Source of the DNA: Candidatus Aenigmatarchaeota archaeon
GTDB lineage: Archaea > Aenigmatarchaeota > Aenigmatarchaeia > CG10238-14
Direction: 5' to 3'
NCBI GenBank assembly: GCA_044343545.1
Contig: JAWBZR010000009.1
Coordinates: 1-26,333, forward strand
DNA: 26,333 bases
In this document: piece after piece, positions 7,754-11,129 of the stretch
Position numbering within the stretch: the stretch's first letter is position 1
Layout: the number at the start of each line of letters is the position of its first letter
Program-made: the position numbers and the translations under genes
The notes under the pieces: generated by a model
Seen by the model: only the letters and a program-made list of their open reading frames with translations
Database searches by the model: none
What the model was told of the DNA's origin: nothing

Positions 7754-7789
7754 ACCATCACAGGTTACTGGCTTTGGCAATTCAGGCCT
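7754..7789 (-). other. 3' arm of the pre-23S processing stem with canonical BHB
   Basis: RNA AGGCCUGAAU-UGCC-AAA-GCCAGUAACCUGUGAUGGU pairs with 10944-10979. Confidence 0.93.
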
Positions 7790-7941
7790 CTCGGGCGATT
7801 AGTAGCGGTAGGCTGAACATCTCGGGCGCACCCTTGATGCTTACACCTCCGCCCTATCAACCCCATCGTCTATGGGAGCCCTCGTCACATAACCGCTTGT
7901 TGCCAAGCAGCTATGTGAATTGCCGTCTCTTATTTGGGGAT

Positions 7942-7974
<33 letters not shown>

Positions 7975-8093
7975 ATTACGGCGTAGCTACTCGGCGATGC
8001 ATGAACAACCGATACACCAGAGGCCGCGGCCGGGCGTTCCTTTCGTACTCGCCCGACCTTCCCCTCAGACGGCAAACACCACCAATAGATACC

Positions 8094-8127
<34 letters not shown>

Positions 8128-8254
8128 AACGTCCCCTTTTAACCAGTGGACACCTGTACCCTTGGCTGCTACTGCACAGCCAGGTGAGGGGGAGCCGACA
8201 GCGACGGAGCAACACGCTTCGTCGATATGGACTCTCGGAAGCTACGACCCCATT

Positions 8255-8282
8255 TTAGGGGAGAGTATCGAAGCTACTCTCT
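8255..8282 (-). other. 28-nt BHB mini-intron B2 after U2449
   Basis: A-GAGAGUA-GCUUCGA-UACUCUC-CCCU-AA; CCCU pairs with exon GGGG; removal together with B1 restores GGGGAU|AAUGGGGUC. Confidence 0.8.
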
Positions 8283-8388
8283 TTAGGGTGCTGGATCTGC
8301 GATGCTAAAAGGTTTTTTCTCAAAAGCTAAATTCCTCTGCAGTTTGGTGGGGTGGTATCAATCGGGTTAGATCTTACACAGATCCATT
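8283..8388 (-). other. 106-nt BHB/BHL intron B1 after U2449
   Basis: 10-bp terminal stem UGGAUCUGUG/CGCAGAUCCA; ends in CCCU-AA|A like B2; no ORF. Confidence 0.8.
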
Positions 8389-8397
8389 ATCCCCGAG

Positions 8398-8430
8398 TTC
8401 GCCGTATGAGAGCAACCAGCTCATCATACT
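8398..8430 (-). other. 33-nt hairpin intron A after C2440
   Basis: Interrupts AAAAGCUAC|CUCGGGGAU; GUAUGA/UCAUAC stem; AC|A and AA|C junctions fit relaxed BHB geometry. Confidence 0.85.
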
Positions 8431-9725
8431 GTAGCTTTTCTGATACCACCGGCACCCATTGAGGGCAACCGATGTATCGCTAACCCACGCTTTCGCGGCT
8501 GGATTCCTTGTTGGCCAGAATCCAGTCAGGCCAGCTTTTGCGTTTGCACTCTACTCCCGATTTCCGACCGGGATGAGCTGACCTTTGGGCACCCTTGATC
8601 TATTGTCAAGGGTGTACCGCCCCAGCCGAGCTGTCCATCAAGCGGTGTCCCGCTGTCGCGGTTAGCATTACAATTGAGAAAGGGTGGTGTTCCAACGGCC
8701 TCTCAGTTGGACCCGGAAGCCCAACCTAATAGCGAGTCCCACCTACACTCTGCATTCTCAATCGTAATGCAACGCCAGACTACAGCAAAGCTCTACGGGG
8801 TCTTCGCTTCCCATTGGTGGTCTCTGGCCTATTCACCAGAATGGCAGGTTCACTAGGTTCCGGGTTGGGACAGCGAGGAAGTCGTTAAGCCATTCAAGCG
8901 GGCCGTCAATTAAACGGCAAGGGATTACGCTACTTTACGACGGTCAGAGTTACCGCCGCCGTTTACCGGGGCTTAGCCCGATTGGACTCGGGTTTCACAC
9001 ACCGGCACTGGGCAGGCATCAGGGACCATACACAACATTTCTGTCTAGCGGTCCCCTATGTTTTTGTTAAACAGTCGCTTCCTCCTTGTCACTGCGACCT
9101 ACACTCCCTGTGAGGAGTATAGGCACCCCTTCTACCGAAGATACGGGGCGAGATTGCCGATTTCCCTAACCCGGAGTAGCCTAGCACGTCTTCGCCTTCT
9201 CAGCGAGGGCACCTGTGGCGGTTCTCGGTACGAGTGCAAGGAATCCTTTCAAGGACCATTTTCACGGCCTCAAGGAATCGATCAAACTTGGCTTAAGCCA
9301 AGCTCATCCCATTTTCACCTGGTTCTCCTCATAACGAGACTCCCCAGGCTTGGATGGTTGACTTGCGTTGACCTATCCCCAAGGGTCTGGTCCTTGACTT
9401 GCGTCGCCGCACGTATCCTTGCAGTATCCGAATATTAACGGATTTCCCTTTCCCCAAGCTATGTTAACGCTTGCGGTTAGGATCGACTAACTGCCAGCTG
9501 ATCGACATTGCTGGCAAAACCTTGCCCTTTAGACGGCTGAGGTTCTCACTCAGCTATGCTGCTACTAGTGTCAGGATTTTCATTCCCGGACGATCCACAC
9601 GATCTTACGACCGTGCTTCTGCTCATCCGGGACGCCTCCCTACCACCTCTTTCGAGGTCCAAGGTCTCGGTAGCTGGCTTAGTGCCTTCCATTTTCAGAG
9701 CCCAAACCCTCGGTGGGTGAGCTGT

Positions 9726-9809
9726 TTTGCGGTGATGAAATTCATCAATCAATGGCTTAATCTTCACGCAATTCAGGTGACCGTCGTAATTTCATCGAAC
9801 TTCATCACT
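9726..9809 (-). other. 84-nt BHB intron C after A1095 (H44, GTPase-associated centre)
   Basis: UGCG-UA|A-GUGAUGAAG...UUUCAUCAC-CGCA-AA|A; removal restores GAGUGCGUAACAGCUC. Confidence 0.92.
9745..9798 (-). ncRNA. intron-encoded box C/D guide sRNA (predicted Cm1920, Um1971)
   Basis: C UCGAUGA 9798-9792, D' CUGA 9776-9773, C' GUGAAGA 9767-9761, D UUGA 9748-9745; 12-nt and 10-nt perfect antisense to 8935-8946 and 8885-8894. Confidence 0.85.
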
Positions 9810-10943
9810 TACGCACTCTTTAAAGGATGGCTGCTTCTAAGCCCACCTCCCCACTGTCTAAGGGTTTGGACATCTTTCGTCGTTTAGCCAGCATTTTGGC
9901 ACCTTAACCTTGGTCTGGCCTGTTTTCCTCTCGGATACCGAGCTTACCCCGATATCCTCACTATAGCCATCTACGACGACAGAGGATTCGGAGTTTGACA
10001 GGATAGCTGAGCCTTTCGGCCCTTGACTATCCAATCAGTAGCTCTACCCCCCTGTCTGTCTCCGGCTATGCTGTACTGAGGTACATTTCGGGAGGAACCC
10101 GCTATTGCCGGACTCGATTGGCTTTTCACCCCTAACCCCAGGTCACCCGAGTGGTTGGTTCCCAACACCGGTAGCAGACCTCCATCTGGCTTTCGCCAGA
10201 CTTTGTCTTGCCCAGGGTTTGATCGTCCGGCTTCGGGTCTTATCCAAGTGATTTCGGGCACTATTCGTACCCCGCCCCACGCTATCGCTAGCTACGGGCT
10301 GGTCGCTTTCGCTACGCCTTTCGGCTCACCACTTGGATAAACTCCCTGACCCATTCTTCGAAACGGACGGTGCAACCCTGCTTACGCTTAGGAGCCGCAC
10401 CTGACTATACCTACTTGGCTTCGGGCTCTTTTCACCGGCCGTTAGGCCTACTTTTCAGCTTTCTCTCATGATACTTGTTCGCTATCGGACTAGAGTTATA
10501 TTTAGGGTTGGATGTCAATGACACCCATCTTCCCGATCCAAATTCAAGGACCGGTACTCTGGATACTTGGCATCACCTTTCTTGCCTTCCTCTACGTGGC
10601 TTTAACACTCTATGGCGTGGCATTTCAGCCAACTTCGAGTCGGCAAGCGAAGGCGGACCCAAGTCCAAAACTCCACATCCGCCTTAACTTTTCGCTAAGG
10701 CGTTCGGTTTGCCCTTTGCCGCTTTCACTCGCCGTTACTCACGGCATCTCGTTTGATTTCTTTTCCTGCGGGTACTAAGATGTTTCAATTCCCCGCGTGG
10801 CCCTTCCCTGCCGGGAATGCAAAGGGGATTTCCCATTCGGAGACCTTGGGTTCAAAGGCTGCGTGCGCCTACCCCAAGCTTTTCGCAGCTTACCGCGTCC
10901 TTCATCGGTACTCTAGCCAAGCCGTCCACCAAGTAGGGTGAAT

Positions 10944-10979
10944 AGGCCTGAATTATTGCCGCCAGTAACCTGTGACGGT
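10944..10979 (-). other. 5' arm of the pre-23S processing stem with canonical BHB
   Basis: RNA ACCGUCACAGGUUACUGGC-GGCA-AUA-AUUCAGGCCU gives 19 bp / 3-nt bulge / 4 bp / 3-nt bulge / 10 bp with 7754-7789. Confidence 0.93.
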
Positions 10980-11067: not shown

Positions 11068-11129
11068 AGGCTCAAAAGGTGTCCTCCTCTTCATTTATAC
11101 TCAGAGAGACAGTTCGGCTATCATCGCCT
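11068..11129 (-). ncRNA. box C/D guide sRNA in the 23S leader (predicted Um2552, Am2600)
   Basis: AGGC/GCCU termini; C GCGAUGA, D' CUGA, C' AUGAAGA, D UUGA; guides antisense to 8096-8107 and 8148-8155. Confidence 0.88.

Follow-up and report, generated by a model that had tools for sequence, protein, structure and literature searches.

What does an 84-nucleotide (nt) insert do in the 23S ribosomal RNA (rRNA) gene of an archaeon whose whole genome measures 651 kb? The insert lies in a stretch of 26,333 nt from Candidatus Aenigmatarchaeota archaeon (assembly GCA_044343545.1, contig JAWBZR010000009.1, positions 1 to 26,333), here called the window, whose forward-strand numbering is used throughout, and it interrupts the loop of helix 44 (H44) in the GTPase-associated centre. 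An initial annotation had read it as an intron that is itself a box C/D guide RNA for the same 23S rRNA. We arrived at the same reading: the insert is most probably, judged from its sequence and that of its relatives, an archaeal bulge-helix-bulge (BHB) intron, its whole interior forming a dual-guide box C/D small RNA (sRNA) that would target its own host 23S rRNA. Conserved boxes and guides, the presence of the ribonucleoprotein (RNP) genes and the occurrence of the same guide in free-standing sRNAs support it.

An intron in the H44 loop

The 23S rRNA gene was aligned to its Rfam model, which has 2 nt where the gene has 86 nt, between GUGCGUAA and GCUCACC. The net insert of 84 nt (9809..9726) coincides with the extent given in the initial annotation, and its removal restores the conserved GUAACA of the H44 loop, as seen in the alignment against intron-less homologues. 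The same 84 nt were found with 0 differences in DNA contig X1 (record 6); the source runs for DNA containing the insert are hot-spring metagenomes. The gene and the boundaries of the intron have the following features.

7779..10954, minus strand: 23S rRNA host gene (Rfam RF02540, 2512.3 bits, model positions 1-2987)
9726..9809, minus strand: putative BHB intron and box C/D sRNA, between GUA and ACA of the H44 loop (86 against 2 nt; exons abut in most relatives)
9812..9815, minus strand: BHB central 4-bp helix, 5' strand UGCG (exon), pairing with CGCA at 9731-9728; paired in 13/13 introns
9728..9731, minus strand: BHB central helix, 3' strand CGCA (intron 3' end); RNAfold pairs 3 of the 4 bp
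9809..9811, minus strand: 5' bulge UAA, unpaired in the minimum free energy (MFE) fold; 5' splice site between 9810 and 9809 if cut after its second nt
9725..9727, minus strand: 3' bulge AAA; 3' splice site between 9726 and 9725 if cut after its second nt
9797..9808, minus strand: closing stem, 5' arm GUGAUGAAGUUC; the MFE fold has 12 bp here, and in 5 of the 7 alignable stem pairs both partners have changed
9732..9743, minus strand: closing stem, 3' arm GAAUUUCAUCAC, from the MFE fold and covariation

With a 261-nt probe spanning the site, matches were obtained in 37 of 61 related genomes. In most of them the two exon halves abut, and only 6 carry a mini-intron there: the source genome (G000), three species of the same genus (G001, G002 and G003), G013 from another genus and G027 from another family. 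A search for the junction pattern over genome contigs gave 14 loci, 4 true and 10 chance matches in bacterial metagenome-assembled genomes, and over metagenome contigs 71 loci, 7 of them in rRNA context and 64 elsewhere. In all, 13 distinct introns (6 genomic and 7 metagenomic) were compared.

Two 3-nt bulges with a 4-bp helix between them, followed by a 12-bp inner helix, make up the layout of a BHB intron. BHB cleavage falls after the second nucleotide of each bulge; cuts at these places in both bulges would thus release an intron of exactly 9809..9726 and rejoin GUAACA. At the 3' bulge the MFE fold leaves 6 nt unpaired (AAAACA). In the alignment of the 13 introns 95.1% of the cells are paired and both partners have changed in 6 of 11 pairs, a pairing score reached by 0 of 500 shuffles, the slid controls giving 28-57%. 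The covariation extends into the exon, since in two of the 13 introns (G013 and locus L081) the exon change from UGCG to UACG is matched by a change from CGCA to CGUA in the intron, which turns a G-C pair into A-U. Profile searches showed that the genome encodes the splicing endonuclease EndA (PF01974, 98.9 bits, C1:60068-60346, an open frame of 183 aa) and the ligase RtcB (PF01139, 538 bits).

Box C/D architecture

The initial annotation had described boxes C, D', C' and D in this order within the insert. The order and boxes D', C' and D were upheld by our analysis, while the box C then proposed, UCGAUGA (9798-9792), was 3 nt out of register. As the UGA at 9794-9792 is invariant in 13/13 introns and the GA at 9796-9795 occurs in 5/13, box C is AUGAAAU (9795-9789), and with this register both spacers measure exactly 12 nt. 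The insert then reads C, 12 nt, D', linker, C', 12 nt, D, which is the order of an archaeal dual-guide sRNA.

9789..9795, minus strand: box C AUGAAAU (corrected register), UGA invariant in 13/13 introns
9777..9788, minus strand: D' spacer UACGACGGUCAC; the guide duplex spans 9789-9778 and 11 of its bp fall within the spacer
9773..9776, minus strand: box D' CUGA, GA in 12/13 alignment rows, the row of L081 being shifted by 1 nt yet reading CUGA
9761..9767, minus strand: box C' GUGAAGA, UGA invariant in 13/13
9749..9760, minus strand: D spacer UUAAGCCAUUGA; the guide duplex spans 9760-9751, and nt 3 to nt 11 are identical in the nine introns of the main clade (see below)
9745..9748, minus strand: box D UUGA, GA conserved, exactly 12 nt from C' in 11/13

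Aligning the homologous introns, a check that had been suggested with the initial annotation, showed that boxes and guides are kept: four invariant islands (UGA, GA, UGA, GA) stand within otherwise variable sequence. When the 13 rows were parsed by hand, the GA of both D' and D was present in every one; the spacer from C to D' measured 12 nt in 12/13 (11 nt in L081) and that from C' to D 12 nt in 11/13 (10 nt in L131 and L133), with linkers of 2-7 nt from D' to C'. Positions 5-7 of C and C' differ from RUGAUGA. Other families, too, use the variant AUGAAGA as box C or C' of their free-standing sRNAs.

We also scanned the whole 651-kb genome. A loose version of the architecture fits 25 places, among which the intron alone has both spacers pairing by at least 10 bp with 23S rRNA across the fifth position. 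A separate scan of the genome for perfect RUGAUGA and CUGA boxes with inner boxes gave 0 places; the boxes of this lineage are relaxed. The genes for the RNP, the presence of which was a further check named at the outset, were found by profile search: fibrillarin (281 bits) and Nop5 (218 bits) are adjacent, at C19:10899-12215, and L7Ae is encoded as well, at C1:81887-82162 (101 bits), in addition to EndA and RtcB.

Guides and predicted targets

Direct reading of the sequence confirmed that both guides pair perfectly with the host rRNA, as had been claimed. The D' guide UUACGACGGUCA (9789-9778) is the exact reverse complement of UGACCGUCGUAA (8946-8935), a match of 12 bp that extends at neither end, and the D guide UUAAGCCAUU (9760-9751) that of AAUGGCUUAA (8894-8885), 10 bp and likewise not extendable. 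In RNAs of this kind the methylated position is set by the fifth nucleotide upstream of box D or D'. Counting from D' (9776-9773) this nucleotide pairs with C8943 and from D (9748-9745) with U8892, the same two methylation sites that the initial annotation had predicted; by hand alignment we take 8943 to be C1920 and 8892 to be U1971 of Escherichia coli. The targets, in helices 69 (H69) and 71 (H71), lie 863 and 915 nt downstream of the intron in the same transcript.

8935..8946, minus strand: target 1, 3' strand of H69, predicted 2'-O-methylcytidine at 8943; sequence invariant in all 9 loci reaching it
8885..8894, minus strand: target 2, H71 region, predicted 2'-O-methyluridine at 8892; 51 nt from target 1

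Nine of the introns form the clade with H69 and H71 guides (the main clade). In these the conserved run of the D spacer (100% from nt 3 to nt 11) ends before the last two positions ahead of box D, which vary, and the D' core GACGGUC hardly varies, in contrast to the stems, which have turned over. In eight of the nine, 8-11 bp with H69 remain uninterrupted, and each of these eight has G at the fifth position.

The same guide outside the rRNA intron

The H69 guide core followed by D' and C' was found in 10/117 genomes of the order, and the reversed-pattern control gave 0. These 10 genomes comprise 4 intron bearers with a CUGA D' box, one genome with the module in a transfer RNA (tRNA) intron (G025) and 5 with free-standing sRNAs, the latter from three families other than that of the intron bearers and G025 from a fourth; G013, having CGGA as D' box, falls outside the scan pattern. 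In 18 other family genomes a search for the D' module at fixed spacing gave nothing.

The free-standing sRNAs belong to G030 (family f3), G028 (f7) and G159, G034 and G056 (f5). None of the five lies within an Rfam rRNA or tRNA match, and all of them pair by 10-11 bp with H69 in the same register as the intron. In G030 and G028 the boxes of the sRNA are the canonical AUGAUGA and CUGA, with spacers of 12 nt, and the second guide of the G030 sRNA pairs by 12 bp with the 16S rRNA sequence GGGAUUAGAUAC in 12/12 related 16S genes. We also observed that, about 520 nt from the G030 sRNA, a tRNA match spans 140 nt (L155:840-979, minus strand), corresponding to an intron of roughly 65 nt. Downstream of the sRNA in G028 (L156) a second sRNA-like unit with AUGAUGA, GUGAUGA and CUGA boxes stands in tandem, which suggests a cluster of C/D sRNAs.

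In G025 the intron core gave a weak match inside a tRNA gene of 127 nt (L150:459-585, contig C11), called by Rfam with 61.7 bits and given no call by ARAGORN. By eye its anticodon loop is CUUGUAA, which corresponds to Thr-UGU, and its intron of roughly 54 nt reads AUGAAAG, CACGACGGUCAC, CUGA, a linker and AUGAAGA. The guide of this tRNA intron is thus aimed at 23S rRNA and not at the tRNA itself. Because the same guide occurs in free-standing sRNAs and in a tRNA intron, the H69 guide is, as far as its sequence tells, a bona fide C/D guide of the whole order, which in family f1 is housed in the 23S intron.

Other introns at the H44 site

Other H44-site introns carry different guides, two of which pair with conserved sites of 16S rRNA. 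The 16S gene is not in the G000 assembly, and the 16S genes of relatives were used as proxies for the targets of the sister introns. The D' guide of L075 pairs perfectly over 10 bp with AAGCCAUGCG, at one 16S position, in 9/12 related 16S loci, and the D guide of G027 over 10 bp (1 G-U) with GAUCGGGAUU in 5/12 related 16S genes.

The guides of G027, L131 and L133 had no above-chance match within the window, and the G027 assembly contains neither a 16S gene nor 23S sequence beyond model position 1809 in which its own target could be sought. Three candidate targets were set aside. An exact 10-mer match of the G027 guide elsewhere in that genome lies outside any rRNA or tRNA; the D' guide of G027, L131 and L133 pairs with 16S rRNA over 11-12 bp including 2 G-U, in one 16S only, and was counted as weak; the D' guide of L133 pairs over 9 bp beside H69, a match that is absent in L131.

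At the same H44 site G032 bears a BHB-type intron of 691 nt with a LAGLIDADG open frame (PF14528, 35.5 bits, E 1.2e-8; L021:634-1446, minus strand), which marks the site as a classical homing site. This homing-endonuclease intron is a possible ancestor state of the guide-carrying mini-introns.

Guide-bearing introns at other sites and an sRNA in the 23S leader

Inserts of 84-98 nt with C, 12 nt, D', C', 12 nt and D inside a closing stem were also found in families f2 and f5, at two other sites of 23S rRNA, corresponding to positions 2389 (8 loci) and 2334 (2 loci) of the window's gene; the loci listed for both sites are L008, L013, L014, L019, L023, L025, L031 and L032. At site 2389 the D guide pairs by 9-11 bp with AAAGCUACCUCGG of the same 23S rRNA, about 215-225 nt downstream, in 4/8 loci, several of the others ending before this point. 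The guides at site 2334 pair by 10-11 bp with two 16S sites; the 16S sequences with which guides of these mini-introns pair are AACUUAAGGGA and CCGUAUGCCC. Larger inserts of 150-340 nt are without C/D architecture.

The window's own 23S gene has two further inserts, both missing in G001-G003 of the same genus: one of 33 nt (8398-8430, minus strand) after GAAAAGCUAC, and one of about 134 nt (about 8255-8388, minus strand) between GGGGAUAAUGG and GGUCG, near the peptidyl-transferase region, its borders being ambiguous by 5 nt. C/D architecture was found in neither of them, by eye or in the genome-wide architecture scan.

The 5' leader of the 23S rRNA contains a second C/D sRNA, at 11124..11072 on the minus (rRNA) strand, about 120-170 nt upstream of the 23S 5' end. 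It reads AUGAUAG, 13 nt, CUGA, GUAUAA, AUGAAGA, 12 nt and UUGA. Its D' guide pairs perfectly over 12 bp with GAGACAGUUCGG of 23S domain V and its D guide over 8 bp about 48 nt upstream of this target. The leader sRNA is kept upstream of the 23S gene in 7 relatives (L004, L005, L006, L007, L010, L011 and L016). A 16S-D RNA is known from pre-rRNA spacers.

Two side observations concern the rRNA genes of the order. Some relatives have an insert in the H69 loop after GGCGGCGGUA (L128 and L016, G011; 150 nt in G011), so that in relatives the target helix of the guide is an intron site too. Many 16S genes of the order (L163-L172) span 1.8-2.6 kb against the 1478 positions of the model, which suggests several introns in each.

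The chances seem about even that in this DPANN order pre-rRNA and BHB introns constitute a general delivery system for methylation guides, represented by at least three 23S sites, a tRNA intron and the 23S 5' leader, with guides moving between free genes and introns. Homing-endonuclease introns at the guide-bearing sites may have been converted into guide carriers.

RNA reads over the intron

Positions 8200-10000 were compared with about 3% of the reads of each of two raw metatranscriptome runs, with a set of RNA contigs and with a DNA set. Organism-specific read depth over this region ranged from 0 to about 19x, too thin to weigh either way, and at this depth neither a skip of 84 nt nor a back-joint between the ends of the intron was listed. 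In three RNA runs the bin covering the intron had a depth of 0, with flanking exon bins at only 1.6-1.9x in X21. A very large depth at 9809-9850 was rejected as a signal of this organism, as it comes from conserved rRNA of other organisms whose loose ends continue intron-less.

Alternative explanations

Several observations weigh against an intron that guides two methylations of its host rRNA. Outside the intron the H71 guide module did not turn up: of 370 genomes of the class 5 have it, all of them intron bearers, and none of the other 365. Within the main clade the D' complementarity of L081 is lost except for 2 bp, and a single mismatch leaves 8 bp to the D' guide of G002; moreover, the target sequences are invariant in every locus reaching them, so that covariation of guide and target is not readable. 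The boxes depart from the RUGAUGA/CUGA consensus (AUGAAAU for C, GUGAAGA for C' and UUGA for D). Reading of the sequences also shows that the main clade, including G000, has an extra U (9744) between box D and the closing stem, which offsets the terminal kink-turn by 1 nt; in G027, L131 and L075 the closing stem adjoins box D, and the GA of box C follows directly on a 3-nt bulge, the textbook kink-turn geometry. As to the release of the intron, past the 3' bulge the MFE fold gives the BHB a weak outer helix, making the motif one of the relaxed type, and a single EndA gene (the 183-aa frame) was found in the genome; were this EndA of the strict homotetramer type, cleavage of a relaxed motif would be uncertain.

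Among the other explanations, the one that survives best, improbable as we consider it, is that the intron's sole task is to tether domain II (H44) to domain IV for folding, methylation being absent or incidental. The two targets lie close together in one transcript, closely spaced dual guides have been read as folding chaperones in the available portion of a study on Pyrobaculum (PMC6009581), and the deviating boxes together with the offset kink-turn could weaken catalysis. Against a mere tether speaks the G opposite C1920 at the fifth position, kept by every one of the 14 carriers in which pairing with H69 persists, the free-standing sRNAs with canonical boxes among them. Moreover, spacers of exactly 12 nt correspond to a need of fibrillarin positioning, not to one of tethering.

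It is very unlikely that the insert is a degenerate BHB mini-intron, the remnant of a homing-endonuclease intron, in which boxes and complementarities arose by chance. The LAGLIDADG intron of G032 at the same site would fit such an origin, and single complements do arise by chance: a complement of at least 12 nt to mature 23S rRNA occurred in 123/20000 shuffled introns (about 0.6%) and in 165/19795 random genomic 84-mers. A 12-mer with a separate 10-mer, however, was obtained in 4/5000 shuffles, and none of these three counts demanded correct placement beside D' and D. Boxes, 12-nt spacing and guides are furthermore conserved over the 13 introns while the stems vary, and the same guide module is present outside the intron in 6 genomes, with 0 control matches.

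That the insert is kept in mature 23S rRNA as an expansion segment is hardly credible: the absence of spliced or circular junction reads, which would agree with it, carries no weight at the organism-specific depth given above, whereas the insert breaks a conserved loop of the GTPase-associated centre, its BHB helix covaries with the exon, and both EndA and RtcB are encoded.

A possible mechanism

For the dual-guide intron, the following course of events can be proposed. The intron would be transcribed within pre-23S rRNA, where L7Ae would bind the C/D and C'/D' kink-turns and Nop5 and fibrillarin would assemble co-transcriptionally. The 12-nt spacers would then pair with the 3' strand of H69 and with H71 of the same or of another pre-23S molecule, and fibrillarin would 2'-O-methylate C1920 and U1971; the double tether formed in this way may also aid the folding of domain IV. 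Finally, EndA would cut in both bulges, and RtcB would join the exons, restoring GUAACA, and probably circularise the intron, which could continue acting in trans as a circle.

Relation to known systems

In the literature searched, with subscription-only papers and supplements lying outside the search, no described case of a C/D guide in an rRNA intron was found; the available portions of PMC7714728, PMC6125680, PMC3608112, PMC6009581 and PMC4644070 contain none. This agrees with the initial annotation, which knew of the tRNA-Trp intron as precedent, and this is the published precedent that we met as well. A C/D guide housed in a BHB intron of rRNA and aimed at its own host rRNA thus has its counterpart in print, in the portions seen of these sources, for one tRNA intron only. 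The portion available of a 2021 review (PMC7994747) gives as contexts of C/D sRNAs tRNA-Trp introns, positions downstream of tRNAs, intergenic regions and overlaps with genes, and leaves rRNA introns unmentioned there; it also describes the termini of C/D sRNAs as usually without BHB motifs and calls the route of circularisation unclear.

The closest parallel is the sRNA in the euryarchaeal pre-tRNA-Trp intron (Haloferax volcanii; sR50 of Pyrococcus), which, according to the available text of PMC7994747 and PMC7714728, is likewise a BHB intron with dual guides to two nucleotides of the transcript that carries it. The splicing endonuclease sets it free, and the same release is proposed here for the 23S intron. 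Unlike in that system, the host is a 23S rRNA with the intron in the H44 loop, and the targets lie at the long distances given above and not in the adjacent exons.

With free-standing archaeal dual-guide sRNAs, such as the 110 families in the available portion of the Pyrobaculum study (PMC6009581) and those of G030 and G028, the intron shares box order, 12-nt spacers and the register of the fifth nucleotide, as well as targets within 100 nt of each other and the H69 hotspot. In the same portion of that study 72% of the dual rRNA guides target within 100 nt, from which its authors infer a role in folding, and the 51-nt spacing of the intron's targets fits these data; H69 is described as a predicted methylation hotspot in thermophilic and hyperthermophilic archaea in the available part of PMC4644070. 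Unlike the free-standing sRNAs, the intron sRNA has no gene or promoter of its own and its ends are set by the BHB and the 12-bp stem, so that its release, and probably its circularisation, would proceed via EndA and RtcB.

Eukaryotic intron-encoded small nucleolar RNAs (snoRNAs) of the box C/D type, as treated in the part of PMC7994747 available, are similar in that the guide resides in an intron and its supply is coupled to a ribosome-related host gene. They differ in being hosted by spliceosomal introns of mRNA or non-coding genes and trimmed by exonucleases, whereas here the host is the substrate rRNA and the intron a BHB intron cut by an endonuclease. The LAGLIDADG introns of archaeal rRNA (Desulfurococcus, Staphylothermus and Pyrobaculum, in the available text of PMC3608112) are of the same kind, with the G032 intron even at the same site. 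Unlike them, the 84-nt intron has no open reading frame and its interior is a putative guide RNA, by which it would benefit its host.

A comparison can also be drawn with bacteria, in which TlyA is the protein-only 2'-O-methyltransferase for 23S C1920 and 16S C1409. The predicted nucleotide in H69 and the chemistry would be the same, whereas TlyA is a stand-alone enzyme unrelated to an RNA-guided fibrillarin RNP; as the two are unrelated, shared methylation of C1920 would be a case of convergence.

Significance

Archaeal rRNA introns are usually seen as selfish elements or neutral remnants. If our reading is true, this intron pays its way by guiding two modifications of its host rRNA, one in H69, a subunit-bridge helix, and one in the neighbouring helix, and the supply of the guide would be tied to that of its substrate without a separate promoter, which would be useful in a genome of 0.65 Mb. 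It would constitute a prokaryotic parallel to intron-hosted snoRNAs, with guide and substrate in one transcript. BHB cleavage followed by RtcB ligation would also be a concrete way in which the circular C/D sRNAs of thermophiles could arise, their origin being called unclear in the portion of PMC7994747 cited above. The guide in the 23S intron looks like one member of an apparently wider habit in this DPANN order, and since sister families house it variously as a free gene, within a tRNA intron or within an rRNA intron, the movement of a guide between these contexts can be studied.

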